A DNA stretch of 64,000 bases from contig CANFPP010000001.1 in NCBI GenBank assembly GCA_947449005.1, positions 8,442 to 72,441 of the forward strand, read 5' to 3'. The position numbers were made by a program, and so were the translations under genes. How positions within the stretch are numbered: the first letter of the stretch is position 1; every line of letters begins with the position of its first letter. Below the pieces are notes generated by a model. That model made no database searches. It was not told the DNA's origin and saw nothing but the letters and a program-made list of their open reading frames with translations. Below, piece by piece: positions 14,801-39,572 of the stretch. This DNA is from Holosporales bacterium. GTDB lineage: Bacteria; Pseudomonadota; Alphaproteobacteria; Paracaedibacterales; CANFPP01.

Positions 14801-15037
14801 AGAAAGGCAGCAGAATATAAAGTAAATACTGATACTTGGGTTAGTCCAGAGTACCAAGGAAAATTTGAATTCTTATCGAGCGATGATCAAATCTTGCTAA
14901 AGAATCATTACGAGCAGATGGTTTTGAAATTTGAACAAGATTTATTGAAATCAAGAGATACGCTTTCTGAAACTGAGAAGGCATTTGCGAGGAGAGAAGT
15001 TGGTGAATATCTGAGTGTGACTTGGTTTGTGGGATAG
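11846..15037 (+). CDS. Secreted IQ-motif / helical-repeat protein, paralog 3 (1,063 aa), with a unique C-terminal domain of about 360 aa
   Basis: Signal peptide ...LMLSLIGTSVHA/A. IQ-like IQRLYRDRKLNQTF (11954-11995). Family N-domain plus repeat modules. From about aa 700 (nt about 13943) the sequence is non-repetitive and is absent from the other three paralogs. Confidence 0.8.
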   Translation: MKMSIVKTTSTVLMLSLIGTSVHAATTYFDEKTTIKIQRLYRDRKLNQTFETLNQTSKNIKRGVVPAPTEADLEESIASLNEHSDFKSMGLPAVYFINAKKDLDIRPFIERYQGYIQSQMASRDPIRRQIASLIMAELATKAAAENDKFNTAQYFLQEAISSDYPFFKHNAYLQLSGLARDYADKNQAINCLRKGLILPNRYHASIYRKLAYVVDSEEYKPSRERYLKQIIEIGTPTEKIKALMSLAYLYGRNQSNSAFYRPSEALDIYDSLLANPQLISFLDTDNVHIQIAIIRAFSPDEEIKNVDRAVEILDGILLNRPNDWNYSNAATQLISIFITKDPARAFSLAREALSNPNLQQPFKIYIEKALADLYRHGPEGIKNPQAALQILENLAAMTFGPTFAPDYHSIVLLSLTHHLVYGDATVKNAARAIQIHEELRKDSKVKLAALIDLAHIYQHDAEHKNLLKAIEYFEEILLLHEGKPVEQFNTLIRLLSLYTTEGETLNLEKAQIIQQRISEMQPIIESNNSKESFVALQSLASLLTFGNDRVKDRGRAIQILEELSKHRESKLLSLPILVYIYEHIAEHKNPVKVTECLNKLVELYADKPLEQLKALTKLLKIYTTEGTAFSIEEAKAAVQRILTHSAVDGTARLEVQVALSKLFHLHPESGSTAEIIDVNNELAHNPMATPSDVGDAHRRLIAAYLTQRSFEQVVTTYEHFLTRAVDWQRTGVILDFISFLENPDHATVQNPARVTELRALLPQPAVFMTEELVQLPGIVAGFGGAGHVDPYFSPEMIANRKASLLALSGDHFDQVNYQTNLERTIAEVKEAIAQYGARDAEFAATAVVATEVFETGNTHPYSYRPTVQDLDYQFSIDDLGREMAYGEALVRIWARITHHPDVNHLKDLIVLQLAAAIDPDGHIVCPVGKIMRHFQAMEGTFPDVRAVTLSLENAFSGFAKNEQKLIDALPGEHPLKILESKIGEIRKAAEYKVNTDTWVSPEYQGKFEFLSSDDQILLKNHYEQMVLKFEQDLLKSRDTLSETEKAFARREVGEYLSVTWFVG

Positions 15038-19362: not shown

Positions 19363-20145
19363 ATGTTCGCTGGAGCTATTGATCATAACAAAACTGAGCA
19401 AATGGTTGAAAGCTTGGGGGAAAGTAGCGATCTGAACGAGCTTAATATAAACATCAAAAAGATTTTTGAATCCTTTGATATAGAGAAATTTTCAATCGCA
19501 GGATACTGCGATAATGAGTTTCAAATTTTTGATACTTATCCCCCCGATTGGATGTCACATTACATTTCAAGCCAATATCATTTCCATGACCCAATCCTCT
19601 CATGGAATAAAATTCGACTCCCTTTTAGCTGGAGCAGCAATAAAATAAAAAATCTAACGCCAACACAGGAGCGTTTATTTTCAGAAGCTCATGATTTTGG
19701 AATTAATACAGGCATAACCTTATCTGTTCCCAGCCAGACTGGGCAAATATTTCTTACACTCTTGGATCATGAAAATCATCATCCTTTCGCACTGTATGCG
19801 CTTTCTTTAGCGGCTCAATCTTATTGGCACTTTACACAAATAACAAAAGCAAAGACTTTATTAAGCTTATTAACAGCGCGTGAACGTGAGATTATTTTTT
19901 TAAAAACAAAAGGATTGGCCATGAAGACCGTGGCCACAACTCTGAACATATCTGAATCAACTGTCGTTTTTCATTTAACAAATATCAAAAAAAAACTAAA
20001 AGTTTCAAATAGTGAACAAGCCCTTTTTCTTATTGGATTAGCAGTTAGCCAGTTACCAGGAAGTAATTTTCAAAACTTAGATAAAGAAAACTTTAATAGT
20101 AATGTTCACCCAGCTGCTCTTCGCTCTTCATTATTATCTTCTTGA
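19363..20145 (+). CDS. luxR: LuxR-family AHL-responsive transcription regulator
   Basis: Autoinducer-binding-domain residues (PPDWMSHYISSQYHFHDPIL...W). C-terminal HTH LTAREREIIFLKTKGLAMKTVATTLNISESTVVFHLTNIKKKL. Confidence 0.85.
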   Translation: MFAGAIDHNKTEQMVESLGESSDLNELNINIKKIFESFDIEKFSIAGYCDNEFQIFDTYPPDWMSHYISSQYHFHDPILSWNKIRLPFSWSSNKIKNLTPTQERLFSEAHDFGINTGITLSVPSQTGQIFLTLLDHENHHPFALYALSLAAQSYWHFTQITKAKTLLSLLTAREREIIFLKTKGLAMKTVATTLNISESTVVFHLTNIKKKLKVSNSEQALFLIGLAVSQLPGSNFQNLDKENFNSNVHPAALRSSLLSS

Positions 20146-20783
20146 GTATATGCGTAGATTGGTTTTACGTAAGATAGGAGAGGCTTTGTAAAATCATAAC
20201 CTAATTGTGCAAGTAGTTTTTCATAGCTTTGCCAAGAAAACACGTAGCTCGTTACCAACAACTGATTTCCATTGAAATTTCTTTCCACAACAGGTTCCCC
20301 AGAATATCCATACCGACTATACAGTTTTTTAAACGCAGGGAATGAAACAACAAGACACATTTTTACATTCTTTAACTCTAAAGAAAAATGTGCATAAGCC
20401 GCAGAAATACTGGCTGTAACGTGGCTGACCATTTGAGGCGTATAATTTTCATCAAAATTGTGATCAACAGCTAGTCTACTTTGTTCCCAGCACCCAACTT
20501 TCTTAAAATTTTCTAAGTTAGGGAGCAGAAACCTAAAGGGACCATCGAACATGCATGGATTTATCATCTCAATAAGACGAATACAACCTCTTACAATCCC
20601 GCGTTCATCTTTATAAATTATGTACGTGGCATGTTTCTCGTCATATTCATCTTTTTCCATACCGTGGTTACTTGTAACATCCCACTTTAGTTTTTCGAAA
20701 AAAACTTTATGCCGTAGACGATACATATTATCAAGGTCGTGCCTATGAAATTCATAATTACTTGGATCAATGAGAATTAGCAT
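20106..20783 (-). CDS. luxI: LuxI-family acyl-homoserine-lactone synthase
   Basis: MYRLRHKVFFEKLKWDV...EKDEYD...ATYIIY...RGCIRL...CWEQSRLAV matches conserved LuxI blocks (R..VF...L.W.V, E.D.YD, WE.SR). Convergent with luxR, and the 3' ends overlap by 40 nt. Confidence 0.85.
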   Translation of the reverse strand: MLILIDPSNYEFHRHDLDNMYRLRHKVFFEKLKWDVTSNHGMEKDEYDEKHATYIIYKDERGIVRGCIRLIEMINPCMFDGPFRFLLPNLENFKKVGCWEQSRLAVDHNFDENYTPQMVSHVTASISAAYAHFSLELKNVKMCLVVSFPAFKKLYSRYGYSGEPVVERNFNGNQLLVTSYVFSWQSYEKLLAQLGYDFTKPLLSYVKPIYAYTQEDNNEERRAAG

Positions 20784-21414: not shown

Positions 21415-21520
21415 GATCCCCGAATCAAGTTCGGGGATGATAAGAATGAAGAGTGGATTCCCGCCTACGCGGGAATGACGATAGGGTGTATCGTCATCCT
21501 GTTTCTTAATATCAGATCTC
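21415..21520. repeat. Cluster of palindromic-element arms (families A and B)
   Basis: GATCCCCGAATCAAGTTCGGGGATGAT, GTGGATTCCCGCCTACGCGGGAATGACG and CGTCATCCTG...CAGATCTC. Confidence 0.6.
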
Positions 21521-25669: not shown

Positions 25670-26380
25670 TTAATGGGCAGTAGCTTTTGGAGCATTCGTA
25701 ACAATTGCTTTTACTTCTTTAGCTGATTTGTAGCAAGCAGTACTAAGATGTCCGATTTGACGTTTATTGTCTGGAGCAGCTAGGTCAGTTAAAGCTTTTT
25801 TAAATGAGTTAGCTACAGTCAAATAAGCATCAGAAAGTGTTTTCCAGTTTCCTGAAAGGTTTGCAGCTGTAGCTGCTGCTGTCGCTTTCTCAATGTCTTT
25901 TGTACATTTTTCAACAGCAGAAGCTCTCTTTTTCGCAAGCTTTTCAGCTTTAGCAGCTGGCAACGGAGCAGCAGCAGTTTTTGGAGCATGCTTAACAAGT
26001 GACTCTACTTCTTTAGCTGATTTTTTACATGCAGTTTCAAGATGTCCGATTTGCGGTTTGTTGTCTGGAGTTGTTAGGCCAGTTAAAGTTTGCTTCAATA
26101 AATTTGCTGCATCCAAGTAAGTACCAGCAAGCATCTTCCAATTTCCAGTAAGATTTGCAGCGGTAAGTGCAGTTGTCGCTTTACCAACGACTTGAGCACA
26201 ATGCTCTAGAGCCGCAGTTCTTTTTTTCTCAAGTTTTGCTGCTTTAGGATTTACAGCAGGAGCTACAGCAGCTGGAGTTGCAGCTGAAACTGGAGCCGTT
26301 GTTGTGGATGCTGCATAGCTTGGAAGAGCAATTGCTGTGGATAAAAGAAGAGTATAAATAGCTTTTTTCATTAAAATCAC
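25670..26380 (-). CDS. Secreted Ala-rich protein built from two tandem repeats of about 95 aa (236 aa)
   Basis: Signal peptide ...AIALPSYA/AS. Halves align: ...AANLTGNWKMLAGTYLDAANLLKQTLTGLTTPDNKPQIGHLETACKKSAKEV... versus ...AANLSGNWKTLSDAYLTVANSFKKALTDLAAPDNKRQIGHLSTACYKSAKEV... Confidence 0.65.
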   Translation of the reverse strand: MILMKKAIYTLLLSTAIALPSYAASTTTAPVSAATPAAVAPAVNPKAAKLEKKRTAALEHCAQVVGKATTALTAANLTGNWKMLAGTYLDAANLLKQTLTGLTTPDNKPQIGHLETACKKSAKEVESLVKHAPKTAAAPLPAAKAEKLAKKRASAVEKCTKDIEKATAAATAANLSGNWKTLSDAYLTVANSFKKALTDLAAPDNKRQIGHLSTACYKSAKEVKAIVTNAPKATAH

Positions 26381-26522
26381 CTTTGTTTTTTGGTCAATAC
26401 GCTGCTTTTTAGAGGATAACAGCTTTTACTTAAAATTTATCATAAACTATTTTTTTTAGGTTACAATGGTATAAATGAATCAAATTCTACTTTTGTAATT
26501 TTTTAGCCTCAAAGCGAAAAAG

Positions 26523-26537
26523 TTAATAATATATTAA
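26523..26537. promoter_or_regulatory. CtrA-box-like motif TTAA-N7-TTAA upstream of ctrA
   Basis: TTAATAATATATTAA, about 105 nt upstream of the ctrA GTG. A chance match is possible in AT-rich DNA. Confidence 0.3.
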
Positions 26538-26634
26538 TTAGGCTAAAATTTTATTAAAATATTAAATTAGTGATTGTCAGATTTCTTTGATATCATGACA
26601 GATAAATGAGGAATAAATCCGTTGGAGACTTGAT

Positions 26635-27372
26635 GTGCGTATATTACTAATAGAAGATGATTCTGCAACTGCAAAAGGCCTTGAGGTTATGTTGCGTTCC
26701 GAAGGCTTTGTCTGTGACTCAACAGATCTTGGTGAAGATGGCTTGGAAATTGGAAAGTTGTATGAATACGACATCATTCTTCTTGATTTAATGCTTCCTG
26801 ATATAGACGGCTATGAAGTTTTAAGACGTCTGCGCGCAGCACAAATAAAAACCCCTATTCTTGTGCTGTCAGGCCTAAGTGAAACTGAAGATAAGGTAAA
26901 AGGACTTGGTTTTGGTGCTGATGACTATATAACCAAACCTTTTAGCAAAGTTGAGTTACTAGCCAGAATTCATGCGGTTGTACGTCGATCTAGAGGGCAC
27001 TCTGATTCGATGATTCGCACGGGTAGACTCGTTGTTAATCTTCAAAACCGCACAGCAAATGCAGATGGAATTACAATCAACTTAACAAGTAAAGAATATG
27101 CAATTCTTGAATTACTCTCCCTTCGCAAAGGAACAACGCTCACCAAAGAAATGTTTTTAAACCATCTCTATGGCGGCATGGACGAACCAGAATTAAAAAT
27201 TATAGATGTCTTTATTTGCAAACTTAGACGCAAAATTGGTGAAGCAATAGGTGATGACAGCTGTATTGAAACAGTTTGGGGCAGAGGTTATGTGCTGCGT
27301 GATCCGTCCGATATTCCAGTAACGACAGCTCCAGTCAATAGAGAGACAGCTCTCGCCTTCGGTCCAGCTTAA
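26635..27372 (+). CDS. ctrA: Cell-cycle response regulator CtrA (OmpR family)
   Basis: GTG start with GGAG RBS. Near-identical to blocks recalled from Caulobacter CtrA: [65 protein letters not shown]. Confidence 0.92.
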
Positions 27373-28070
27373 GCGCAATCCTCAATCTTTGGTTGGCCCT
27401 TGCGCTTTTTTAAACTCATCATGTTTTTAAATCGAGTAATCTTATTTACTTTTTTAAGAACGAGAGGGGAAGCACTAAGAGGAGATTGACGCCAATAACG
27501 CCAAACAACAGCTGGAGGAATGTTTAAAAAAATATGACCAAGTCTTTTTTTACGCAACCCCAGTTTCTTTGACGATAAAGGAGACATAGGACCATAGGTA
27601 AATTGCAATAAACTGCCGGTTTCTGACAATATACTAAAACAAGCCTCTGCTACACCTATTTGCTCGTCCGCTGATAGGTTTATCATTGGAATACCGGAAA
27701 TAATTGTTGTTACTGAACCAACAATTTGTGCTGGCAGTAAATTCTTTAAATCCTTTGCATCACCCTCAACAACCATCACATTCGGAAAATTCTTTCTCAA
27801 AAACACACACATTGCAGGGTCTAGCTCAACAATTACAAGCTTATCAGGAGTTACACCTGCACGCAGCAATGCCTGAGTAAAGCGCCCCGTCCCTGCTCCT
27901 ATTTCTACAATGAGATAATCAGCAACTAAATCAACGTGGCTGGTGATAAAATTAGCAAGCATATTAGAGCTAGGGAAAAGTGCCCCAAGAGATTTTGGAT
28001 TTTTCATAAGTTGACGTAGAAAAAGCAGGTTTTCGTCTCGTTTGCGAATTACTGGCTCTGGAACATTCAT
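27369..28070 (-). CDS. Class I SAM methyltransferase, phospholipid N-methyltransferase-like (COG3963 type), copy B
   Basis: Track ORF runs to 28226. The internal start MNVPEPV at 28070 is preferred because it removes the overlap with the upstream gene. Motifs [19 protein letters not shown] and [15 protein letters not shown]. Confidence 0.6.
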
Positions 28071-28080
28071 TCTGCAATCC

Positions 28081-28707
28081 TTAAGAATGAGCGTCTTGTT
28101 TATGATAACGCCAAACAAATCCTGGAGGAATATTAACCCACAAGGAGCCTTCACGAATCCCATAATAACTTGAAAGCGTCGATAAAGGAGACTTTGGGCT
28201 ATAGGTAACATGTAATATTGTGCCATCTGGCTGCATCACATCAAAGCACGCATTAATAATGTTCGAACGCACCTGCTTATCTAAGTACATCAAGGGAACA
28301 ACAGAAACAACGGTTGTAACAGCACCACTCCACCCAGAAGGTAAAAGATCGGGCAAACATGCAGCATCACCGTTAATAACAGTTAAATCAGGCAAGCTTT
28401 TACTCAAGAAATCACAAAGATCGGGATCAAGTTCAACAACAATTAGATTTTCAGGAAGCACACCAGCAGCCAACAGTGCTCGTGTAAGCCTGCCTGTTCC
28501 AGCGCCTATCTCAACGATTCGTTGCTGAGCAGGGTTTTTTAAAAGACTTGCCGCAAGCGCAGCTAAACGAGGTGTAATCGGCGCCAGGGTCCCTAACCTT
28601 GTAGGGTTAGCCAACCAACGACGAAAAAACAAACGATTCTCACGACTTCGAATGTCACGTTCCTGGACGTTTGCTAAACCCATCAAATCCCTGCAATAAA
28701 ATTTCAA
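28081..28707 (-). CDS. Class I SAM methyltransferase, phospholipid N-methyltransferase-like, copy A
   Basis: [47 protein letters not shown]. Paralog of the downstream gene. Confidence 0.6.
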   Translation of the reverse strand: MKFYCRDLMGLANVQERDIRSRENRLFFRRWLANPTRLGTLAPITPRLAALAASLLKNPAQQRIVEIGAGTGRLTRALLAAGVLPENLIVVELDPDLCDFLSKSLPDLTVINGDAACLPDLLPSGWSGAVTTVVSVVPLMYLDKQVRSNIINACFDVMQPDGTILHVTYSPKSPLSTLSSYYGIREGSLWVNIPPGFVWRYHKQDAHS

Positions 28708-28824
28708 TGCCCAATCTTACACAATCAGAGACAAAATCGCAACAAACTCTTTTTGACAAGAATCCCTTATTGCGTTTCAGTCTTGATTGTTACATCTATG
28801 TTAGGTTGAGAGATTGTAAAATTA

Positions 28825-28937
28825 TAACTACTCAGCATTTTTTTGAGATCCTGCATCAGTGGCTCGTACACCTAAGCTAAAGCTTGGATAACGAAACCAT
28901 TTATCCAGGATCTCATGTAGATTTGCTCAGTGGTTAC
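28825..28937. mobile_element. MITE-like element, family C (short copy)
   Basis: Outer inverted repeats TAACTACTCAGCAT / ATTTGCTCAGTGGTTA. The inner segment TTTTTTTGAGATCCTGCATCAGTG.CTCGT.C.C.AAGCTAAAGCTTGGA is shared with 63073-63286. Confidence 0.65.
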
Positions 28938-28957
28938 CTAAACTTAAGGTATTCAAG

Positions 28958-29983
28958 ATGGAAAAGAAAAAAGACTGTAAAATAGCTGTTGTTGGCGCCA
29001 CGGGAAATGTTGGTCAAGCAATGCTTTCTATTCTAGCAGAACGCGAATTTCCTATAGAAAACATTGCTGCTGTTGCTTCAAGCCAATCAAATGGCCGCCA
29101 AATTTCCTATGGTGAAGTAGGTGTTTTGAAAGTGCAATCTCTCGATACATTTAATTTCCAAGGTTATCAAATCGCCTTGTTTTCTCCTGGTGGAGATGTT
29201 TCAGCAATCTATGCACCAAGAGCAGCGGCTATGGGCTGCATTGTCATTGACAACACCTCTCACTTTCGCATGGATGCTGATGTCCCCCTTATTGTGCCTG
29301 AGGTCAATCTAAGTGATCTTGCCAATTTCAGAAAACGTAACATCATTGCCAACCCAAATTGCTCAACGATTCAGCTGGCTGTGGCTCTAAAGCCTTTGCA
29401 TGATTTAAGCCCAATTACGCGCGTTGTTGTTTCAACTTATCAGTCCGTATCTGGCGCAGGGAAAGAAGCGATGGATGAGTTGTTTGAGCAAACACGTGGT
29501 GTCTTGATGAACTCTTCATACGAACCGAAAAAATTCAATAAGCCAATTGCCTTTAATGTCATTCCACAGATAGATACGTTTTTAAAAGATGGTGAGACAA
29601 AAGAAGAGTGGAAAATGGCGGTAGAGATTAAAAAGATTTTATCACCCAAAATAGAACTGACAGCAACATGTGTACGTGTACCTGTGTTTATTGGCCATTC
29701 AATTGCAGCGAATATTGAATTTTCTGCGCCCATTACTTTAGAAAGCGCTTATAAAAAATTAAAATCTGCTCCTGGAATTACTATTGTGGACAATCCCGCT
29801 AAAAATATTTACACAACGCCTGTCGAATGTGTCAACGAAGACTCAGTCTTTATAAGCCGTCTTCGAATAGACAAAACCGTTCCCCACGGACTCGCCCTAT
29901 GGGTGGTTGCTGATAATATACGAAAAGGTGCAGCCTTAAATGCCATTCAAATTGCTGAGCATTTGATTAACAAGCAACTCTAA
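28958..29983 (+). CDS. asd: Aspartate-semialdehyde dehydrogenase
   Basis: VVGATGNVGQ, NPNCSTIQL (active-site Cys) and YQSVSGAG motifs. 341 aa. Confidence 0.93.
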   Translation: MEKKKDCKIAVVGATGNVGQAMLSILAEREFPIENIAAVASSQSNGRQISYGEVGVLKVQSLDTFNFQGYQIALFSPGGDVSAIYAPRAAAMGCIVIDNTSHFRMDADVPLIVPEVNLSDLANFRKRNIIANPNCSTIQLAVALKPLHDLSPITRVVVSTYQSVSGAGKEAMDELFEQTRGVLMNSSYEPKKFNKPIAFNVIPQIDTFLKDGETKEEWKMAVEIKKILSPKIELTATCVRVPVFIGHSIAANIEFSAPITLESAYKKLKSAPGITIVDNPAKNIYTTPVECVNEDSVFISRLRIDKTVPHGLALWVVADNIRKGAALNAIQIAEHLINKQL

Positions 29984-30007
29984 GATCGTACAGTATTCAA
30001 GTTTTTA

Positions 30008-30192
30008 TAAGAGAACAGCCTGGATCCCCGCCTTCGCGGGGATGACGAGGTGGGAAAACCGAGAAAAATGCACTCGCACATTTTTTGTTATTTTCTTCGC
30101 CATCTTTGTTTTCTCCATTGTCGTCCTTGCTCTCTATTGTTATCCAGCTCCCTCTACCGTCATTCCCGCGCAGGCGGGAATCCAGGCTGTTT
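30008..30192. mobile_element. MITE-like palindromic element, family A (full copy)
   Basis: TIRs AACAGCCTGGATCCCCGCCTTCGCGGGGATGACG ... CGTCATTCCCGCGCAGGCGGGAATCCAGGCTGTT. Shares the left flank AAGAGAACAG and the internal sequence with the 10018-10163 copy. Confidence 0.8.
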
Positions 30193-30228
30193 AAAATTAT
30201 ACAGCGAAGATTTTACCTGATTTCTCTT

Positions 30229-30360
30229 AGATCTCCGTCTCCACGGAGGTGACATCGATAAGAGAGATAACGACAATATTTGTTTCGTATAATCACCCTC
30301 AAGCACTCCGCTATTATGGCTATTTCGTCGTCACTCCCCTTCGTCACGCCTTATTCTCTC
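30229..30360. repeat. Degenerate family-A-like arms
   Basis: GATCTCCGTCTCCACGGAGGTGAC (hairpin) ... CGTCGTCACTCCCCTTCGTCACGCC. Confidence 0.4.
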
Positions 30361-30596
30361 TGGCCTCATTCATATCACAAAAAATCTATAAAAATTTAGT
30401 CAAAATTTAAGTTAAAAATAAATAAAATATTAGATATATTTAACTATAAAGTTTAAACATTAAATAATTGTTAACTTTATAAGAAAAATGTTGAATATCT
30501 TTGTTAATTTTACTAGTAAGTATGTAGTTGTTAACTATTACAGCTGACTTCAAGAACTAACATGAATGGGACAAATGAGATCTTTATCGACTAACT

Positions 30597-33500
30597 ATGT
30601 TTAAATATTTTTTATTCAACAGATCTTTAATATTGCTTTCAACTGTCTCTGTAGCTGCTCTCTACACTTCAGATGCGGCTGCTGCTATGCCTGCAAACGA
30701 ACCTCCGAAATGGTATCCTGAAGCGCATGTAGACCTGAAGCAGGGAACTAAACGCGGAATCGCGCAGGTTGGAACCATAACTCCTCTTGCCCAAAACGCT
30801 ACATCTCTTGCTTATCTTGATTTGCGTTTGATGTCTGACACAAACAAAGCAAAAGAAGGAAACTTTGGTGCGGGTGGAAGATGGCTAAAAGATGGTCGTT
30901 ATATCCTGGGAATGTATGCCTTTTATGATAGACGCTATACAGAGCTTAATAACGTTGTTAATCAGGTAACTGTTGGCTCTGAAATAATGAGTGATACCTG
31001 GGATTATCGCGTAAACGTGTATGTCCCTGAGAATCTTTCAAAAACAATAGTTAAAGAAACTAAGCCAGAACAGAAGACCACCTTTGCTGGTTATACCGAA
31101 ATTCAAAAAAGCACCCAATATTTAGTAAAAGAAGTTCCCCTAAGAGGTTTAGACCTTGAAATTGGGAGAGTCATCCCAGGATTCCCTGCCCTTAGAGTCT
31201 ATGGAGCTTATTATCATTTCCAAGGACGTGATGGTGTCGAGTCTGTAATTGGTGGACGTGTCCGAGCAAATCTAAAATTAAACAAATTTTTCTCATTCGA
31301 AACAGAAGTAAGTCGCGATAACGTCAGAAAAGAAGTTGCCTTCATTGGTATGAGACTGACGATTCCGCTTAGCAAAAATGGCTATAAACCATCAACACTA
31401 ACATCGCTTGAACAACGCATGGTCGAACAGCCAATGCGAGATATTGACGCTGTTACAAATACACAGAACAATACCCAAGTCAAAAAAGACGTGATTAAAG
31501 ATAATTTGCGCCACGTAAATGAAAAAGATGATCCCCTTGCCGATGGTAGCGCTGAACATCCATATCACATAGACAAAACAGATCATCTTGTAGAGTTAGG
31601 CGAGTCAAATGAAGGCGGAGGAACTCCAGAAACTATCGTATGGCAGAATGGAGTTTTAATAAGACGCGCAGACACCACAGATTTTCTTCATGAAAAATTT
31701 GGAACTTCAATAGAAACTGCTTTAGCACTTGGAAAGTTCAAGAAAATCCTAAACAGGATACGCCTCAACAAAGAGATTGAAGCGCGTAGACTGCAAGAAG
31801 TCAAATTTGCTAAAGAAGCAGCAGAACACGAAGCGTCAACAAAAACAAAAGCAGGCAGTTTTTATGAAGCTGCAAAAGCAGCAAAAGCTGCAAAGGATTT
31901 TGCTGAAGAAGAAGAGAAATTAAAATTTGAAAAAACAAAATACGAACACTTTGAAGCACAAGTAGACTTAGAAGCGGCAAAAGAAGCAACGCGAAAAGCA
32001 GCTAAAGATGCGGAACACAAGCAACAAGCTCAGGCAGAAGCAGCCGCTAAACATTGGAAAGAAACCACTAAGAAGAACCGTTTAGAGAAAGAAAGATTAG
32101 CTAGAGAGCAGGAAGAAGCTAGACACGTTAAAGAAGAAGATGAAGCAAGGCTCGCGGCGTTAAGAAAAGAATTTGCTGATGCTCAAAAAATTAAAGAAGC
32201 CGAACAAAAAGCAAGAGATTCTGCAGCAGCTGAACAAAGACTAAAAGATGAAGAAGCACAAAGAAAACTTGTTGAAGCTGCTCAAAAATTAAAAGCAGAA
32301 CAAGACGCTGAAAATATTAGACGTGCTAATGAAGCTGAAAGAATAAGACTTAAAAAAGAAGCTGATGCCCTTCAACTCGAAAAAGAAAAAGAAGTAGAAG
32401 CTCGCCGTCAAGAAATGATTCGTCGAGCAAAGAAAATTGCTGACGAAGAAGCACGAAGAGTTGAGCTGAAGAGAATCGCTGACAAACTTATTGAAGACGC
32501 GCGCATCGCTAAGGAAATCGAAGATAAGAGAATCGCTGATAAACTCATCGAAGATGCTCGTATCGCTAAGGAAATCGAAGACAAGAGAATCGCTGATAAA
32601 CTCATCGAAGATGCTCGTATCGCTAAGGAAATCGAAGACAAGAGAATCGCTGATAAACTCATCGAAGACGCACGCATCGCCAAGGAAATCGAAGATAAGA
32701 GAATCGCTGATAAACTCATCGAAGACGCCCGCATCGCCAAGGAAATCGAAGACAAGAGAATCGCTGATAAACTCATCGAAGATGCTCGTATCGCTAAGGA
32801 AATCGAAGACAAGAGAATCGCTGATAAACTCATCGAAGATGCTCGTATCGCTAAGGAAATCGAAGATAAGAGAATCGCTGACAAACTCATCGAAGATGCT
32901 CGTATCGCTAAGGAAATCGAAGACAAGAGAATCGCTGACAAACTCATCGAAGACGCTCGTATCGCTAAGGAAATCGAAGAAAAGAGAATCGCTGATAAAC
33001 TCATCGAAGACGCACGCATCGCCAAGGAAATCGAAGAAAAGAGAATCGCTGATAAACTCATCGAAGATGCTCGTATCGCCAAGGAAATCGAAGACAAGAG
33101 AATTGCTGATAAACTCATCGAAGATGCTCGTATCGCTAAGGAAATCGAAGATAAGAGAATCGCTGATAAACTCATCGAAGATGCTCGTATCGCTAAAGAA
33201 ATCGAAGATAAGAGAATCGCTGATAAACTCATCGAAGACGCACGCATCGCCAAGGAAATCGAAGAAAAGAGAATCGCTGATAAACTCATCGAAGACGCAC
33301 GCATCGCCAAGGAAATCGAAGATAAGAGAATCGCTGATAAACTCATCGAAGATGCTCGTATCGCTAAAGAAATCGAAGATAAGAGAATCGCTGATAAACT
33401 CATCGAAGACGCCCGCATCGCCAAGGAAATCGAAGATAAGAGAATCGCTGATAAACTCATCGAAGATGCTCGTATCGCTAAGGAAATCGAAGATAAGAGA

Positions 33501-36500
33501 ATCGCTGACAAACTCATCGAAGACGCTCGTATCGCTAAAGAAATCGAAGATAAGAGAATCGCTGATAAACTCATCGAAGATGCTCGTATCGCTAAGGAAA
33601 TAGAAGACAAGAGAATCGCTGATAAACTCATCGAAGATGCTCGTATCGCTAAAGAAATCGCTTCTAAAAAAACAATCGTCGATAACTTCAGATCTTTCAC
33701 TAAAGTTAAAAAAGCTAAAGCTAAACTTGCTGAGCTTAAAACGGCTGAAGTGTTAAGACTTGAAAACGTCAGAATTGAAAAAGAAACCGCAATTAATGCT
33801 CTAAAAGACAAAGTCCTTCAAGATGCTATCGCCGCAAATCTCCTTCATGAAGCTGACGAAGAGCGTAGAACTCAAATAGATCTGCAAGTCAAAGCTGAAA
33901 AAGCAAGACTCGTTGATCTCGAAGTGGCAGCCTTAGAACAACTAAGAGCAGATGAAGATAGACTCGCTAAACTTGATGCTCAAAATGAGAAAGAAACTGA
34001 ACTCGCTGAAATCGAAGATCAAAGGCTTAAAAACAAAAAACTCAAAAAAGCTGCTCAATTAGAGAGAAGAGCACAAAGAAGAGATGCTGCTGAAGCACAA
34101 AAACTCTCTCAAGAGCAAGCAAGAGAAGAACTTGAAAGAAATAATCTCGAAATTCAAGAAACACAACAAAAACAAACTGAGAAACTTAATACAGCTAAAA
34201 CAACTGTAGCTCAAAAATTACAAGATCTCATTAAAGTTAAAAAAGCCAGAAAACAACTTCAAACAGCTCGTGACGCAGCGACAACGATTCAATCCGCTTG
34301 GAGAATGAAGTCTGATCAATCTGCTTTCAGTGATCTCAAAGATGCGGTTAAAACCCTGCAAAACAAACAGAGAATGAGCTCAGCTAAAGCGGAACTTGCT
34401 AAACTTAAAGACACTAAACTCAAAGCTGACTCAGCCACAACCATCCAATCCGCTTGGAGAATGAAGTCAGACAAAACCGCTTTCAGCGATCTTAAAGATG
34501 CGGTTACAACCCTGCAAAATAAACAGAGATTGAGTACAGCTAAAGCAGATCTGAAAGCTAAGCGCGCAGAAGAGCAACAAGCATTTTTAGATTCTCTGCT
34601 CGGTGATGAAGAAACAAATACACCAGTAAGCGAAAGTCAGAGAAGACTTAGCGCTAGTCGTTCTGTAGACAAAGCAAACTTCGTTAATACCAGAAGAGGA
34701 AACAATCCCTCGATGAACTATGATGGTTCACCAATAACAAGGGGAGCAACTTTTGAAACTTTTGATTTTGGCACCGAGGATTTTGGCTATGATGGTACTT
34801 TTGGTGACGATATTGAAGGAGAAAGAGATTTTTCAGATAAGGGCACACCTAGAGATTTAAGTGATGATGAGATGTATGTAGGAGCATTACATCACGATGA
34901 TATCTACAGTGCGCCTGGTAACGAAGAATTTGCAGTTCCAAACATAATGAAAAAAGACGGTTCTAAAGAAGGTGCTGCAGAAGCTGAGATTAAAGGCACT
35001 CGCAGCGAAAAAGAAAAAACTGCTGTAGGAACGCGACGCAATTCGGTACCAGCAACACCTACTCAAGGTAAAAAGAAATTGCAAGTACGCCGTAAATCAG
35101 ATTCAACAACAATTGAGCAGCCAAGAGAACAACAAGCATCAACACCTAACACCTCAGGACAGGTTAGTGCGATGAAGAGCAAGTTGTTTGGGCCGAAATC
35201 AGTACGCAAATCTAAAGTGACTGGTAAAGACGAGGCAGCAATGTTTAAAGCTACATTGCCAGATCTTTCTACTATGGGAAGTCGTATCGCAGGAATCGAA
35301 AAATTGCCACTTGTGGACCGTCGTGCCGCGCTCACTAGACTTACTAATGAAATACACCGAGCTGAAGAAGTATTAGCCGTTGAGATAGAAACCCGGGCTT
35401 TTGAAAAGTCACTTCCTGCTGAACGAGCAGAGCTCGCTAAATTAAAAAGTGAAATCGAGAATCTGGAGAGAATAGCAAATGCAGAGGAACGCCGAGCTCT
35501 ATCTGCCGATATCCATAAAAGACTTGATGCAAAAGCAAAAGCAGTAGAGGGAACTGTAAAACGCAGAGAGAGTTTGGGTGCTCCTGCTGTTTCAAGTACC
35601 TCTATTGCTCAAAGTGCTAAACTTGCGGCTCAAACTTCTTCCGCGGAAGCGTCAATTTTTAGCCCAGGCACAGTAAAAGCAGCAGAAGATCTTGATAGAG
35701 CGGCAAAGCTCTATGATCTATCGTTGCAAGCTTATGAAGAGGCTCAACGTGTTGACGGTGAAGATCATGGAAGTCTACCGGCAGAAGGTCCTGTTACATC
35801 AAAATCATTACAGAGAGCAAAGAAAAGACTTCCACAGAATCGATTCACAAGCCCAGATGGTATTGTATTAAGCGATGCACCAACGCCAGATATGGATACC
35901 CCAAACCTCGATGATTTAACCCCTACCCCTGTTCACCAACAAAATGTTCAGAAGAGAAGAGAGTCAATAATCGGCAAAGGCTCAGCTTTAAAAGAAGCTC
36001 ATCAGGTGTTGCATCCTCAACAAGCTCCGGCGTTAAGCCTAAATGAAGAACTTGAGTTGGAAGAAGAACATTTAGAACAAGAAATTGCTGCACCTACTTC
36101 TAGGGCGAGACAACAAACACCTAGAAAACCACAGCATATTGAGGTTCGAAAAAGTATGCTCTCTCCTGATAGTCAGTTTTCTGGGCAAGTTGATGGTAGT
36201 TCAAGTGAGTCTGCTGATGAGAATGATGAATCTGGAATATTTGACCAAGGAGTGGATGATTCATTCACAAGCCCAGGTTCACTCGCAAGTCCGACTGAGG
36301 ATGTCAGATTTGGCGCCAAAGCAAGAGCTGGGTTAGCGAAAAGAAAAACATTATTTGGCCAACCTAAAACCCCAGGTCAGCACGGACAACAAGCTTCTAA
36401 TTCAGATGATGTGTACAACTATTCTCTAGGTAGTCCTGATTTTGTGATTGAAGGAACGCCCGTAAAATCAGTAGATTTTTCCGATAGCCCAAAGGTTGAA

Positions 36501-38021
36501 GAAAAGAAAAAATCAAGCATATCAAGAGCCCTGAAAGAAAAAGTTCGCGGACTCTTTTCTAACCTCGTAGGTGTTGTAAAAGAAGAAATTGCTGAGAGAG
36601 CTGCTGAAAGGGAAGCTGCTACACGTCGCGCTGAAGAGAACAGACGATATGATGCGGAAGAAATAATCCATCTACCTCTAAGTCAAGAAGTAATTGAAGC
36701 AGCTGCAAAAGCAAAAGAAAAAGGCATGACCCGTGATCAACAACTTAGAAAGCAAGGAGCTGATTTTGCAAGGCTTCATGCAGATAGTAAAATTGTTGAA
36801 AGAAAAGTTGGCTATTCTGAAGATCCAACTGATGGTCCTTTTTATAGTTTTTCTAAAGAACTTAGAGATAGTGGCGCTCAAGATAACTTTGAAGAAAGCA
36901 ATTTTCCAAGTAAAGAATTTACAGCTTCAGTATCATTTGATCCAACAGCTGAAATAGCAATAAAGCACTTTGAAAAAGCTATAGAACTTTCTCAACAAAC
37001 ACGTGAATTGTTTGAACAGCTGGCTGTGAGAGAAAAAGAATTGAAAAAAACAATGAAGACACTTCCTCCGCTTGAACAGACTAAGTTACTTATGACCATC
37101 TTGGATGAAAGAGAAGAAGTTCGGAGAACAATCAATCAAGCATACTTAGAATATGATAGAATTAAAAGCTCAATACCTACTGAGCAAAATAATCCATTTT
37201 CTTCAAACAGCAAGGCAGACGCTAGAAGAATCTCGATCATGGGAATCCCAAGTAATGGAGTAAGTTCAGATGCACAATCTACGTCATTCTCATCAGTGTC
37301 TGAAGCGGAAGAACGAGTGAATGAATTGGATAATATTGTAACTGGCTTAAGTCACTCCAGAGCTGAAACTCATGCTCCAACAGTTCGAGCTAAAGATAGA
37401 AATGATGATGCAACTTCATCAGCTTCCAGCAAACAAGAAGAACAAGTAGATGAATTGGGTGATATTGTAACTGGTTTAAATCAACACAGAGTTCAAGCTC
37501 CTTTTCCAACAGTTCATCATCAAAAAACCAAATCTACAGATGATGATGCAGCATCATCCGTTTCTAGCATACAAGAAGAACAAGTGAATGAATTGGATGA
37601 TATTGTAGCTCACTCAAATCAACACAGAGTGCAAGCTCCTGCTGCAATAGCTCATCATCAAGCAAGCAATGATGCAGATGATGATGCTTCATCCGTTTCT
37701 AGCAAAGGAGAAGAGCAGGTAGATGAATTGGGCGATATTATAACTGGCTTAAATCAACACAGAGTGCAAGCTCATGCTGCAACATCTCCTCATCAAACAA
37801 CCCAAGAAGCAGATGATGACACCTCATCTGCTTCCAGCATAGGAGAAGAACAAGTAAATGAATTGGATGACATTGTAACTCACTCAAATCAACACAGAGT
37901 GCAAGCTCCTACTCCAACGGTTCATCATCAAAAAACTGAAGATGCAGACGATGATGATGCCTCATCTGCTTCCAGCATAGGAGAAGAACAAGTAAATGAA
38001 TGGGATGATATTGTAACTTAA
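30597..38021 (+). CDS. Giant (2,474 aa) surface protein: N-terminal inverse-autotransporter-type beta-barrel plus a coiled-coil/repeat passenger
   Basis: Signal peptide ...ALYTSDAAA/A. aa about 40-290 match recalled intimin/invasin beta-domain blocks (FGAGGRWL...ILGMYAFYDRRY...VTVGSEIMSDTWDYRVNVYVP; ...RVYGAYYHFQG; linker LTSLEQRMVEQPMRDID). The remainder is K/E/A-rich coiled coil, 21 x 19-aa repeats, two IQ-like motifs, a long low-complexity region and C-terminal 45-aa repeats. Confidence 0.85.
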   Translation: MFKYFLFNRSLILLSTVSVAALYTSDAAAAMPANEPPKWYPEAHVDLKQGTKRGIAQVGTITPLAQNATSLAYLDLRLMSDTNKAKEGNFGAGGRWLKDGRYILGMYAFYDRRYTELNNVVNQVTVGSEIMSDTWDYRVNVYVPENLSKTIVKETKPEQKTTFAGYTEIQKSTQYLVKEVPLRGLDLEIGRVIPGFPALRVYGAYYHFQGRDGVESVIGGRVRANLKLNKFFSFETEVSRDNVRKEVAFIGMRLTIPLSKNGYKPSTLTSLEQRMVEQPMRDIDAVTNTQNNTQVKKDVIKDNLRHVNEKDDPLADGSAEHPYHIDKTDHLVELGESNEGGGTPETIVWQNGVLIRRADTTDFLHEKFGTSIETALALGKFKKILNRIRLNKEIEARRLQEVKFAKEAAEHEASTKTKAGSFYEAAKAAKAAKDFAEEEEKLKFEKTKYEHFEAQVDLEAAKEATRKAAKDAEHKQQAQAEAAAKHWKETTKKNRLEKERLAREQEEARHVKEEDEARLAALRKEFADAQKIKEAEQKARDSAAAEQRLKDEEAQRKLVEAAQKLKAEQDAENIRRANEAERIRLKKEADALQLEKEKEVEARRQEMIRRAKKIADEEARRVELKRIADKLIEDARIAKEIEDKRIADKLIEDARIAKEIEDKRIADKLIEDARIAKEIEDKRIADKLIEDARIAKEIEDKRIADKLIEDARIAKEIEDKRIADKLIEDARIAKEIEDKRIADKLIEDARIAKEIEDKRIADKLIEDARIAKEIEDKRIADKLIEDARIAKEIEEKRIADKLIEDARIAKEIEEKRIADKLIEDARIAKEIEDKRIADKLIEDARIAKEIEDKRIADKLIEDARIAKEIEDKRIADKLIEDARIAKEIEEKRIADKLIEDARIAKEIEDKRIADKLIEDARIAKEIEDKRIADKLIEDARIAKEIEDKRIADKLIEDARIAKEIEDKRIADKLIEDARIAKEIEDKRIADKLIEDARIAKEIEDKRIADKLIEDARIAKEIASKKTIVDNFRSFTKVKKAKAKLAELKTAEVLRLENVRIEKETAINALKDKVLQDAIAANLLHEADEERRTQIDLQVKAEKARLVDLEVAALEQLRADEDRLAKLDAQNEKETELAEIEDQRLKNKKLKKAAQLERRAQRRDAAEAQKLSQEQAREELERNNLEIQETQQKQTEKLNTAKTTVAQKLQDLIKVKKARKQLQTARDAATTIQSAWRMKSDQSAFSDLKDAVKTLQNKQRMSSAKAELAKLKDTKLKADSATTIQSAWRMKSDKTAFSDLKDAVTTLQNKQRLSTAKADLKAKRAEEQQAFLDSLLGDEETNTPVSESQRRLSASRSVDKANFVNTRRGNNPSMNYDGSPITRGATFETFDFGTEDFGYDGTFGDDIEGERDFSDKGTPRDLSDDEMYVGALHHDDIYSAPGNEEFAVPNIMKKDGSKEGAAEAEIKGTRSEKEKTAVGTRRNSVPATPTQGKKKLQVRRKSDSTTIEQPREQQASTPNTSGQVSAMKSKLFGPKSVRKSKVTGKDEAAMFKATLPDLSTMGSRIAGIEKLPLVDRRAALTRLTNEIHRAEEVLAVEIETRAFEKSLPAERAELAKLKSEIENLERIANAEERRALSADIHKRLDAKAKAVEGTVKRRESLGAPAVSSTSIAQSAKLAAQTSSAEASIFSPGTVKAAEDLDRAAKLYDLSLQAYEEAQRVDGEDHGSLPAEGPVTSKSLQRAKKRLPQNRFTSPDGIVLSDAPTPDMDTPNLDDLTPTPVHQQNVQKRRESIIGKGSALKEAHQVLHPQQAPALSLNEELELEEEHLEQEIAAPTSRARQQTPRKPQHIEVRKSMLSPDSQFSGQVDGSSSESADENDESGIFDQGVDDSFTSPGSLASPTEDVRFGAKARAGLAKRKTLFGQPKTPGQHGQQASNSDDVYNYSLGSPDFVIEGTPVKSVDFSDSPKVEEKKKSSISRALKEKVRGLFSNLVGVVKEEIAERAAEREAATRRAEENRRYDAEEIIHLPLSQEVIEAAAKAKEKGMTRDQQLRKQGADFARLHADSKIVERKVGYSEDPTDGPFYSFSKELRDSGAQDNFEESNFPSKEFTASVSFDPTAEIAIKHFEKAIELSQQTRELFEQLAVREKELKKTMKTLPPLEQTKLLMTILDEREEVRRTINQAYLEYDRIKSSIPTEQNNPFSSNSKADARRISIMGIPSNGVSSDAQSTSFSSVSEAEERVNELDNIVTGLSHSRAETHAPTVRAKDRNDDATSSASSKQEEQVDELGDIVTGLNQHRVQAPFPTVHHQKTKSTDDDAASSVSSIQEEQVNELDDIVAHSNQHRVQAPAAIAHHQASNDADDDASSVSSKGEEQVDELGDIITGLNQHRVQAHAATSPHQTTQEADDDTSSASSIGEEQVNELDDIVTHSNQHRVQAPTPTVHHQKTEDADDDDASSASSIGEEQVNEWDDIVT
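32463..33659 (+). repeat. Perfect-register tandem repeat, 21 x 57 bp (19 aa: E[DE]KRIADKLIEDARIAKEI)
   Basis: Counted directly: 1,197 bp = 21 x 57. The units differ at nine third-codon positions. Unit 1 also differs non-synonymously in codons 1-3 (ELK). Confidence 0.95.
37299..38018 (+). repeat. C-terminal tandem repeat of about 135 bp (45 aa), about 5.3 copies
   Basis: Unit EEQV[ND]EL[DG]DI[VI]T[GH].NQHRVQAP....HHQ....DDD.SS.SS.G. The last partial unit reads EEQVNEWDDIVT-stop. Confidence 0.85.
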
Positions 38022-38087: not shown

Positions 38088-39572
38088 ATGAAAATTAAAA
38101 ATTTAATATTATTGATGTTATTGAGTTTAAGTTGCTCAATTGCCTCAGATGAGGATGACTCAGGGACTGAAATTGAAGGAGGAAAAGGTCATAATAGATT
38201 AGTAGCTAGAAAAGCTGCATCATCTTCATTTGATGCAGTTGACTTAACAGCGAAATCTAAAACTACATCAAAAATTAGAGGCATTGGCTTTACAAGTCCA
38301 GGGGTAAAGGTACCAAAAGCCGAAGTAACTATAGAGGAACTTGTTGAAACTATTAACTCCAATAATAGCATTCAAAGAAGATACCAACTGGCTCTTTTAA
38401 AAATATTAAAACAAAGCCGCTCAGCAGAAACTGATTGCAGAGGCATTAGATCTGAACTTCAAGCAATACAAGAAGACAATGAAAGAAAATCTGTTGAAAT
38501 AACAATGTTAAGAAAGACACAATCTGAGCATTTTCAGCTAAAGATGAAAGTAAAAGAGTTAGAAGCAAATAGCGCTAGTAATCAATCATTTTTAGATAGT
38601 CTTAAACAATCTTTAGAAGACGTGACAGAAACAAAGATAAGACTGCAGCAAGAGATATCCCAGCTAGAAATAAGAAATGCATTTCTTGAAACTAATTCTC
38701 AAGACCAACAAAAACTTATTCAACAGATAGATTTACTAAGAGGAAGAGTTGAAGAAGATGATGATGGCGAGGAAGACGGAGAAGCAATGTTTGGTTTTGA
38801 AGCTGATAGAATGTCTAATTCTACTGCTTCACGTTCCATTGCTCGCTCTCATTTCACTACTGGCCAATCTTCAAAAAAAGCTACGTTACTTTCTAATATC
38901 ACATATAGAGAGAGCTCTGTAAAACACAGAGAAGGTTCTATAAAACCTCCACGACCAGTAGCTCGTAATTTGGATGGATTTTTTGAAAGCATTATTACAC
39001 ATAGACCAGATTTATTTAATATACATAGAAAAGCAAGTGATTTATTTACAGGAGTTACTGATAGAAGAACCTTTGTATTAGAAACAGCACGAGGAATATC
39101 AGATACATCCAAAGCGACTTTACAAACAGCACTAACTGGTATTTCTGTGAACTTTTTTTCATCAAAAGGAAAACCAGAACTTTCAGGAGATGCAAAGAAA
39201 AAAGTCAAATCATTTACGGAGGCTTTACCAAGTTATCTATCAGGGGCTGATCTAGAATTCGCCACAAAATGTGTGGATCATGTTATTACATACTTCCTCA
39301 CGCAACAACAAAAAGACACAAGAATTACTCTCGATGACTTATATGACATACAAAAAAGTTCAGCAGGTTACACTCTTACTAATAGTGCAGTGCAGAATAA
39401 AGTATTTATGATATCATCAGGATCTATTAGAGAAAACATAATTTTCCAATTGTTTACTAACTCAGATTCGATGACTAGCTCTGAAACATTAAGTCGTTAT
39501 TGGGCTGATACAGCTTATCGCTTTTCAACACCGCAGCCTCAATCTGCCTCATCCGCTAAGGCAGACCTATAA
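38088..39572 (+). CDS. Secreted coiled-coil protein (494 aa), operon partner of the giant protein
   Basis: RBS ggagaa. Signal peptide MKIKNLILLMLLSLSCSIA/S. Central heptad-rich region, acidic EEDDDGEEDGE patch, C-terminal domain of about 230 aa with no recognisable motif. Followed by a strong terminator. Confidence 0.7.
   Translation: MKIKNLILLMLLSLSCSIASDEDDSGTEIEGGKGHNRLVARKAASSSFDAVDLTAKSKTTSKIRGIGFTSPGVKVPKAEVTIEELVETINSNNSIQRRYQLALLKILKQSRSAETDCRGIRSELQAIQEDNERKSVEITMLRKTQSEHFQLKMKVKELEANSASNQSFLDSLKQSLEDVTETKIRLQQEISQLEIRNAFLETNSQDQQKLIQQIDLLRGRVEEDDDGEEDGEAMFGFEADRMSNSTASRSIARSHFTTGQSSKKATLLSNITYRESSVKHREGSIKPPRPVARNLDGFFESIITHRPDLFNIHRKASDLFTGVTDRRTFVLETARGISDTSKATLQTALTGISVNFFSSKGKPELSGDAKKKVKSFTEALPSYLSGADLEFATKCVDHVITYFLTQQQKDTRITLDDLYDIQKSSAGYTLTNSAVQNKVFMISSGSIRENIIFQLFTNSDSMTSSETLSRYWADTAYRFSTPQPQSASSAKADL

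Follow-up and report, generated by a model that had tools for sequence, protein, structure and literature searches.

The 64,000-nucleotide stretch of DNA analysed here (the window) belongs to contig CANFPP010000001.1 of a Holosporales bacterium (GenBank assembly GCA_947449005.1), and one of its genes, at 30597-38021, encodes a giant protein whose N-terminus is a true inverse-autotransporter (type Ve) beta-domain. Attached to this anchor is a C-terminal passenger of 2,180 amino acids (aa) in which no Ig-like domain was detected and which appears to consist of a charged helical rod, a cluster of IQ-like motifs and a long acidic tail. The reading that we favour, and that we regard as somewhat likelier to be right than wrong, is that the protein is a monomeric type Ve autotransporter of a Holosporales/Paracaedibacteraceae-like protist symbiont, with a myosin-neck-like passenger that captures host calmodulin or light chains. 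The gene had been singled out from the sequence of the window and its open reading frames (ORFs) by a model working without database searches (hereafter the original prediction).

The original prediction recognised an intimin/invasin-type beta-domain, and the evidence on the N-terminus bears this out. When the N-terminal 368 aa were scanned alone, the Pfam profile IAT_beta (PF11924) matched aa 45-211 with E 8.5e-17 (62.1 bits vs a cut-off of 22.3; profile positions 52-193 of 279); the Pfam scan of the full-length protein returned IQ only, without IAT_beta. A profile built from 30 relatives matched invasin (4E1T, 4e-8) and intimin (4E1S, 1.2e-4) in the PDB and nothing else there. The AlphaFold model of aa 1-340, calculated from an 11-sequence alignment, forms a barrel of 12 long strands (aa 42-257) at a predicted local distance difference test score (pLDDT) of ~90, with an inserted extracellular hairpin region at aa 149-181, a short plug helix at aa 270-276 (LEQRMVE) and an exit strand at aa 286-293. 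This model can be superimposed on intimin and invasin: Foldseek ranked 4E1S first among PDB entries (E 1.6e-14, target template-modelling score (TM) 0.80), followed by 5G26 and 4E1T (target TM 0.74), with these three at E 1e-13 to 1e-14 and the next barrel at 1e-7, at least six orders weaker. Sequence identity of the barrel to intimin/invasin is only ~14-15%.

Sequence and model together give the domain order as signal peptide (judged by eye), barrel, pore linker and C-terminal passenger. The putative signal peptide shows K3/R9, the hydrophobic core LILLSTVSVAAL and then SDAAAA/M, and the barrel starts ~8 residues past it; neither the Pfam scan nor the AlphaFold model places a LysM or other periplasmic domain before the barrel. 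The plug linker that the original prediction had written as L..LEQRMV..P.RD lies at aa 268-289 and is conserved as LTSLEQRMVEQPMRDID, with M275, R281, D282 and D284 kept across 30 relatives (R281, D282 and D284 invariantly). Some 30 residues beyond the linker, in a region of low pLDDT, stands DGSAEHPY, a form of a motif common to relatives from Paracaedibacter, Finniella and metagenome-assembled genomes (MAGs).

The coding sequence runs in one uninterrupted frame through 2,474 codons to its stop and, at 7.4 kb, is the largest gene in the window, as originally noted (the second-largest ORF encodes 1,269 aa). At the gene's base composition, the probability of meeting no stop over 2,474 codons is ~1e-72, and the two alternative frames on the same strand contain 123 and 307 stops. 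We compared the integrity of the frame with four metagenome contigs (L003, L004, L005 and L006). L003 matches window positions 25947-32568 with zero mismatches, its sole difference inside the giant gene being an in-frame 18-bp indel in an AAKAAK run, whereas L005 (34271-38308 at 99.5%) and L006 (34452-38321 at 99.95%) are gap-free within the gene. Independent contigs together cover nucleotides 30597-32568 and 34271-38021 free of frameshifts, and the frameshift splitting that the original prediction had named as grounds for abandoning its reading was not found. Neighbouring genes do carry frameshifting indels between assemblies, and against that background a clean frame in the giant gene carries more weight: the response regulator gene at 26635-27372 is split in L003 by an 11-bp deletion (window 26940), and L005 has a 13-bp frameshifting insertion early in the ORF at 38088-39572 (window 38123).

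A decaying or misassembled gene—either a chimera produced when repeats misled the assembly or a gene that is a pseudogene within the population—would offer another account, and one that we consider highly improbable. It could draw on the fact that the 57-bp array and the IQ duplication described below are where short-read contigs stop, that the exact full-length product has no record in the gene collection searched, and that the beta-domain coding region of scaffold L004 is interrupted at 2678-2962 (window 31124-31145) by an N gap and ~275 bp of AT-rich DNA foreign to the gene. This interruption may have arisen in scaffolding, or part of the population may carry a mobile-element insertion. It must also accommodate an intact 7.4-kb frame at the probability given above, flanks confirmed by three independent contigs at 99.5-99.9% identity with an in-frame indel only, and repeat units that differ at synonymous sites yet are conserved as protein. 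Moreover, the 57-bp unit is a multiple of three in length, so that errors in copy number would keep the frame.

From aa 421 to aa 1335 the passenger runs for 915 consecutive residues without proline or glycine, 42-58% of them charged. Within this rod lies the 19-aa repeat, for which the 21 units originally counted agree with the 20.9 copies of 57 bp found by Tandem Repeats Finder (TRF); 20 exact peptide units, RIADKLIEDARIAKEIE(D/E)K, occupy aa 626-1005. Among these units 11 of the 19 codons vary, always at third positions, and the pairwise codon differences number 647 synonymous vs 51 nonsynonymous (all of them D/E at one position). Such a ratio argues that the repeat is under selection: as judged from its codons, the units are kept identical by purifying selection and are not a ghost of assembly.

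The original prediction took the K/E/A/R-rich segment at aa ~390-1180 for a coiled coil, an assignment that its periodicity does not support. Hydrophobic power at period 3.5 gave no heptad signal in any of four rod segments (z -0.9 to +0.9 vs shuffles), and the best occupancy of a/d positions, at 0.50-0.59, was below that of shuffled controls (0.58-0.61), with no window reaching 0.8; on these two grounds the coiled coil was rejected as the default reading. Attractive-minus-repulsive charge pairs across aa 421-1205 were in excess at i+3 (z 5.5) and i+4 (z 6.5), near zero at i+1 and depleted at i+5 (z -3.3), and the non-repeat part at aa 421-625 gave z 4.1 at i+4 by itself. The part at aa 1006-1205 had neither a heptad nor a clear charge-pair signal and is weak in this respect. 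Salt bridges at i/i+3 and i/i+4 are the signature of ER/K single alpha-helices. Absence of heptad periodicity combined with this salt-bridge excess makes the rod likelier to be a single alpha-helix than a coiled coil, and a single helix also fits a barrel that is monomeric and so has no second chain to pair with. Were the rod one unbroken helix, it would reach a length of ~120-135 nm and could do without a partner.

These measurements also bear on a different account of the whole protein, in which the passenger would be a homo-oligomeric coiled-coil surface fibre (formed between molecules or by folding back) whose main role would be that of an adhesin or spacer, helping the bacterium to attach to the host or to be taken up by it from outside, and in which the IQ-like and RRxS matches would be by-products of helical sequence rich in K, R and Q. 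The rod is indeed K/E/A/R-rich and free of proline and glycine, large hydrophobic residues make up 26% of the 19-aa unit and fall in two stripes, trimeric autotransporters export coiled-coil stalks (PMC7247746), and known inverse autotransporters are adhesins (PMC6555100). We nonetheless think a coiled-coil fibre unlikely. No hydrophobic periodicity, heptad or other, rises above shuffles, a/d occupancy falls below controls, charged residues are paired as in intrahelical salt bridges, and the barrel family is monomeric; furthermore, IQ motifs occur in at least six independent relatives with differing repeat designs, which is hard to explain as noise of composition.

The IQ-like motifs stand at the end of the rod. 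Of the two that the original prediction reported, both can be upheld in that Pfam IQ (PF00612) passes in two stretches (25.8 bits in the whole protein and 31.0 bits in the segment vs a cut-off of 20.3), and a looser pattern extends the count to five, at aa 1208, 1231, 1254, 1283 and 1306 (spacings of 23, 23, 29 and 23 residues). Chance would give 0.2-0.6 such motifs, and five never occurred in 2,000-5,000 shuffles; a 52-aa duplication supplies four of the five. The motifs read IQSAWRMKSD(Q/K) and LQNKQR(M/L)S(S/T)AK. Compared with the consensus [ILV]Q...RG...[RK], they keep I/L-Q and the central arginine, replace glycine with methionine or leucine, and keep the last basic residue in three of four cases. 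The cluster may bind calmodulin or a calmodulin-like light chain, and calmodulin-binding IQ motifs of bacterial proteins are documented in SidJ (PMC6858067) and CopC (PMC9239266).

The passenger had been called non-Ig and all-helical. Its non-Ig character is sustained over the 2,180 aa, as neither Pfam, the PDB nor AlphaFold revealed an Ig-like or lectin domain: Big_1, Big_2, Invasin_D3 and Intimin_C had no Pfam match in the passenger, NCBIfam was likewise empty, and a PDB sequence search with aa 291-2474 returned no match. A hidden Ig-like or other known domain was therefore rejected after Pfam, NCBIfam, the PDB sequence search and AlphaFold (on aa 1336-2474) had all come back empty. Helicity, in turn, holds only for aa ~390-1335, as the last 1,139 aa are mostly predicted to be disordered, and the low-complexity region, put at ~700 aa by the original prediction, measures ~1,140 aa. 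In a single-sequence AlphaFold model of aa 1336-2474, there are 0 beta strands, 849 of the 1,139 residues have pLDDT <50 (mean 44.8), and helical islands appear at aa ~1543-1720, 1975-2063 and 2116-2192. No homologue of this region was found at E <= 0.001 in a database of 5.8 billion proteins. Taking rod and tail together, ~37% of the protein would be charged helix and ~45% is likely disordered.

Net charge in the tail is -17 over aa 1336-1900, -6 over aa 1901-2250 and -33 over aa 2251-2474. RRxS motifs are enriched ~12-fold in aa 1381-2474 (five vs 0.40 expected; 0 of 2,000 shuffles reach five). The C-terminal 45-aa repeats of the original prediction are present as 4.5 copies of 135 bp and follow the pattern ...DDDASSASS.GEEQV(N/D)EL(D/G)DIVT..NQHRVQAP...HHQ. 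The last copy ends in EEQVNEWDDIVT (38004-38018) and is the sole one with tryptophan; by eye only, its terminal acidic W-x-x-I resembles an Atg8/LC3-interacting region (LIR) motif. The coordinates of all these features are collected in Table 1.

Table 1. Features of the giant gene and its immediate flanks, in window coordinates.
Feature	Position	Strand	Basis
MITE-like element (miniature inverted-repeat transposable element) in the 613-bp upstream intergenic region	30014..30191	.	34-nt terminal inverted repeats, 91% complementary
Complete giant gene, 2,474 codons + stop	30597..38021	+	ORF call, stop statistics
Predicted Sec signal peptide, aa 1-30	30597..30686	+	Judged by eye; AlphaFold lone helix at aa 2-30 ahead of the first barrel strand
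Inverse-autotransporter beta-barrel, aa ~38-260	30708..31376	+	Pfam, PDB profile search, AlphaFold, Foldseek
Barrel-traversing linker LTSLEQRMVEQPMRDIDAVTNT, aa 268-289	31398..31463	+	Sequence, AlphaFold, conservation
Post-linker motif DG(S/T)(Y/A)E.PY, here DGSAEHPY, aa 316-323	31542..31565	+	Alignment
Putative helical rod, aa 421-1335	31857..34601	+	Pro/Gly-free run, charge pattern
Tandem array of 57-bp (19-aa) units, RIADKLIEDARIAKEIE(D/E)K, 20.9 copies	32469..33660	+	TRF
Cluster of five IQ-like motifs	34218..34556	+	Pfam IQ, pattern count
Last 1,139 aa, acidic and rich in Ser/Thr/Pro, predicted to be disordered for the most part	34602..38018	+	Single-sequence AlphaFold
Six RRxS motifs (basophilic-kinase consensus), aa 1349, 1480, 1498, 1656, 1787, 2210	34641..37235	+	Pattern count
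135-bp (45-aa) acidic repeats, 4.5 copies	37402..38018	+	TRF
494-aa ORF, N-terminal signal-like sequence	38088..39572	+	ORF call; no Pfam match

On the calmodulin-capture reading, the barrel would thread the 2,180-residue passenger out to the cell surface, where the passenger is probably exposed. The nearest relatives are obligate symbionts of protists, and images of a Paracaedibacter-like symbiont show it lying free in the cytoplasm of its host (PMC8163844); if the present organism lives in the same way, its passenger would face the host cytosol. The enrichment of RRxS sites and the poly-proline/WH2-like/acidic-tryptophan passenger of a Candidatus Paracaedibacter symbiosus counterpart (P0004, below) also speak for a host-facing role. 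The rod (~790-915 residues, ER/K-type) would fold outside the cell as a single helix and project the IQ cluster and the tail into that cytosol. There, calmodulin or a calmodulin-like light chain would dock on the IQ cluster, whose spacing of 23-29 residues is myosin-neck-like. The tail of ~1,140 residues, acidic and predicted to be disordered, carries RRxS sites as well as acidic repeats and would offer short linear motifs for host kinases or adaptors to read. Overall, the protein would be a motor-less mimic of a myosin lever arm on the bacterial surface.

Several points weigh against this reading. Type Ve secretion is thought to be powered by the sequential folding of Ig-like domains (PMC6555100, citing Leo 2016); the passenger is without the domains thought to drive it, and its export is a step that we infer. 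The lifestyle of this organism is likewise extrapolated from its relatives. For nucleotides 32568-34271, in mid-gene, there is one assembly to go by, and the copy number of the repeat depends on it. Among the IQ-like motifs, the five are not independent, owing to the 52-aa duplication, only two pass Pfam by themselves, and their sequences deviate from the consensus (methionine for glycine; Q/K at the last basic position). The single-helix assignment is drawn from statistics of charge and periodicity rather than from a dedicated predictor or a structure, and the rod could oligomerise, since its 19-aa unit is 26% hydrophobic. Finally, the disorder of the tail is a prediction, and single-sequence AlphaFold could miss a novel fold there. 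As to export, Kang'ethe and Bernstein (2013) reportedly passed a natively disordered acidic polypeptide through a classical autotransporter, which would make the export of a disordered acidic passenger plausible.

A further account concerns topology. For ZirT/SinH-type inverse autotransporters, a periplasmic location of the passenger has been proposed (Heinz 2016, PMC4943183), and in the present case the passenger could similarly stay in the periplasm while the barrel serves as a translocase for another protein, for instance the product of the ORF at 38088-39572. That ORF has a signal-like N-terminus, and no terminator-like site was found between it and the giant gene; the two genes may for this reason be co-transcribed. 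We give a periplasmic passenger very little credence. ZirS and ZirU resemble ZirT, whereas the 38088-39572 product has no similarity to the passenger; it is also not conserved at the corresponding locus of Candidatus (Ca.) Paracaedibacter symbiosus, and its ORF carries the frameshifting 13-bp indel in one metagenome contig. A ZirT-like two-partner arrangement with this ORF was rejected for want of both similarity and conservation. Nor is it obvious what a rod and disordered tail totalling 2,180 residues, IQ and RRxS motifs included, would do in the periplasm.

To gauge the breadth of the family, aa 1-300 were compared exhaustively with 1.84 billion cluster representatives, since a profile search of a word-indexed protein database had yielded 9 matches only. 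The exhaustive search returned 3,357 beta-domain relatives at E <= 0.001 and 156 at E <= 1e-30. The closest come from Holosporales protist symbionts and from alphaproteobacterial and Legionellales MAGs, and include Ca. Paracaedibacter symbiosus, Ca. Finniella inopinata, Ca. Odyssella and Paracaedibacteraceae MAGs. The anchor by itself is no novelty, since the NCBI pipeline already gives several relatives the name 'inverse autotransporter beta domain-containing protein'. The Pfam architectures of the 126 nearest representatives comprise IAT_beta in 114, Beta_helix in 19, NosD in 10, IQ in 6 and LysM in 4, and none of the 126 matches Big_1, Big_2, Invasin_D3 or Intimin_C. Many of the closest passengers are rich in K/E/R/A/Q/L or in Ser/Pro. 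The right-handed beta-helix, found in the passengers of 19 of the 126 relatives, is a fold typical of classical type Va autotransporters; Ntox33 and DnaJ each occur in a single member.

Type Ve passengers have been described as arrays of Ig-like or fibronectin-like domains with lectin tips (PMC6555100, PMC4943183), and in the survey of Heinz 2016, members without Pfam Big domains were modelled mostly as fibronectin-like or Big folds (PMC4943183). The claim of a new passenger class made by the original prediction is in part sustained: the passenger is new with respect to Heinz 2016 (PMC4943183) and Meuskens 2019 (PMC6555100), but it is no singleton, as the combination of IAT_beta and IQ recurs in 6 of the 126 relatives, among which Big domains number 0. 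Canonical IQ...RG...R motifs occur in P0006 (the Finniella protein, which has two), P0023 and P0005, and relative P0010 has the same IQS..RM.SD subtype as the giant protein beside canonical IQ..RGH.AR motifs. In P0023, at least six IQ units are embedded in 46-49-aa repeats. The passenger of P0082 (1,927 aa, from an ENA metagenome contig), which follows LysM and IAT_beta, ends in ~35 tandem 26-aa IQ units of the form RDAATKIQAAERARQARKEADKRRGE; its Pfam IQ match has E 4.8e-88.

By these sequence comparisons, the giant protein is one of a recurrent, undescribed set in protist-associated bacteria. No papers tying inverse autotransporters, or IQ motifs, to protist endosymbionts were found in a literature search that covered few subscription journals and is weak evidence on this point. 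A broader proposal, which we advance tentatively and think more doubtful than probable, is that intracellular bacteria associated with protists (Holosporales, Legionellales and relatives) possess a branch of type Ve that has yet to be described, that its passengers are host-mimicking scaffolds of linear motifs in place of adhesive Ig arrays, and that a recurrent subclass carries from 2 to ~35 IQ motifs, arrayed as in a myosin neck, on a single-helix stalk.

Among uncharacterised proteins of Holosporales symbionts, Ca. Finniella inopinata WP_130154023, Ca. Odyssella WP_083821265 and Ca. P. symbiosus P0003 and P0004 have barrels 44-51% identical to that of the giant protein and share with it the linker, the DG.YE.PY motif and charged helical low-complexity passengers, but the passenger sequences themselves are unrelated. 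The gene for P0004 (NZ_JQAK01000001, 9827-11575; barrel 48% identical) stands directly upstream of an M23 peptidase gene, and the giant gene nearly adjoins the orthologous M23 peptidase gene in the window. The 263-aa passenger of P0004 is unrelated to the present one and contains two poly-proline runs, a WH2-like sequence (LLNQIRERRPLTNV) and a C-terminal acidic-tryptophan stretch. Its layout resembles, by eye only, that of WASP/RickA/BimA-type promoters of actin nucleation; Pfam returned no WH2 match in P0004 even at E <= 1. As far as sequence comparison can tell, entirely different passengers are attached to closely related barrels in this lineage.

With intimin (enterohaemorrhagic Escherichia coli, 4E1S) and invasin (Yersinia, 4E1T), the giant protein shares the signal peptide, the 12-stranded barrel, the plug-helix linker and the C-terminal position of the passenger. 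Unlike them, it lacks LysM, Big_1, Big_2, Invasin_D3 and Intimin_C and has a rod, IQ-like motifs and a predicted disordered tail instead; the LysM/dimerisation domain is optional in intimin/invasin/FdeC-type adhesins. Myosin lever arms (e.g. those of myosin VI, myosin X and Dictyostelium MyoM) carry tandem IQ motifs at a spacing of ~23-25 residues next to an ER/K helix. The giant protein matches this arrangement in the measured spacing of its tandem IQ-like motifs and in the adjoining charged helix, but it has no motor domain, its order is rod then IQ rather than IQ then rod, and its IQ consensus is only partly kept.

Rickettsia Sca2 (type Va) is an autotransporter that displays a mimic of the host cytoskeleton. 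Shigella IcsA (Va), Burkholderia BimA (Vc) and Sca2 embody the same concept as that proposed here, namely a type V anchor that presents eukaryote-like motifs to the host cytosol; they differ in belonging to subclasses Va/Vc, in having a C-terminal barrel and in acting on actin nucleation instead of on calmodulin or light chains. Two of them, IcsA and BimA, appear in Table 1 of PMC6555100. Legionella SidJ and Chromobacterium CopC are likewise bacterial IQ proteins, in their case binding host calmodulin (PMC6858067, PMC9239266); whereas these are soluble, calmodulin-activated enzymes injected by type IV or type III systems, the giant protein would be a non-enzymatic, membrane-anchored fibre.

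Elsewhere in the window, four tandem paralogous genes (8132-9994, 10325-11506, 11846-15037 and 15312-19121, all on the + strand) each encode a Sec-type signal peptide (MKK..K.T.T.LMLSLM.T.LNA) with an IQ-type motif within ~10 residues (IIQRKVRLYF, KIQRHYRGEKVRK, KIQRLYRDRKL and KIQVFYWDKKL), followed by 350-1,200 residues with no Pfam domain. Only the product of 10325-11506 passes Pfam IQ (E 7.5e-5). With such motifs in four signal-peptide-bearing paralogues, IQ motifs appear to be a general currency of the exported proteins of this organism. Directly downstream of the four lies a convergent luxR/luxI-type pair (19363-20145, +; 20106-20783, -), that is, an autoinducer-binding regulator and an acyl-homoserine-lactone synthase, unexpected for a symbiont-like reduced genome.

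The region upstream of the giant gene, originally called MITE-rich and AT-rich, contains one MITE-like element only in its 613 bp, followed by an AT-rich stretch, so that the second half of that description is the one retained. A scan for promoters and terminators there returned nothing above background. The inverted termini of the element contain GTCATYCCCGCGNAGGCGGGRATC, a motif present five times in the window vs 0 expected; further copies, at 10033-10056, 11658-11681 and 21456-21479, are found, as in every case, in intergenic spacers beside genes for large exported proteins.

Around the giant gene lie housekeeping genes of an ordinary alphaproteobacterial kind (asd, tgt, dnaX with a DUF3646 tail, ribonuclease P RNA and signal recognition particle RNA). 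Exact copies of the housekeeping proteins of the window are present in several ENA metagenome assemblies, and the downstream M23 peptidase is 52.7% identical to its Ca. P. symbiosus counterpart. The organism would thus represent a related but distinct uncultured lineage, with an intracellular lifestyle presumed from its relatives.

For specialists in type V secretion, the anchor is ordinary, and the surprise would come from the rod/IQ/disordered passenger and from the recurrence of IAT_beta with IQ. Should export be real, type Ve secretion would need no sequential folding of Ig-like domains, and the model of its energetics would have to be widened; type Ve would also take its place beside types Va and Vc among the means that intracellular bacteria have of bringing eukaryote-like motifs to the host cytosol. 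The IQ arrays yield a hypothesis that is cheap to test, namely the capture of calmodulin or light chains at the surface of poorly studied protist symbionts. On the broader proposal made above, IQ arrays would give the bacterium a coat of calmodulin or myosin light chains taken from the host, and this coating might serve cytoskeletal tethering or movement, the tuning of local Ca2+ signalling, or masking of the surface.

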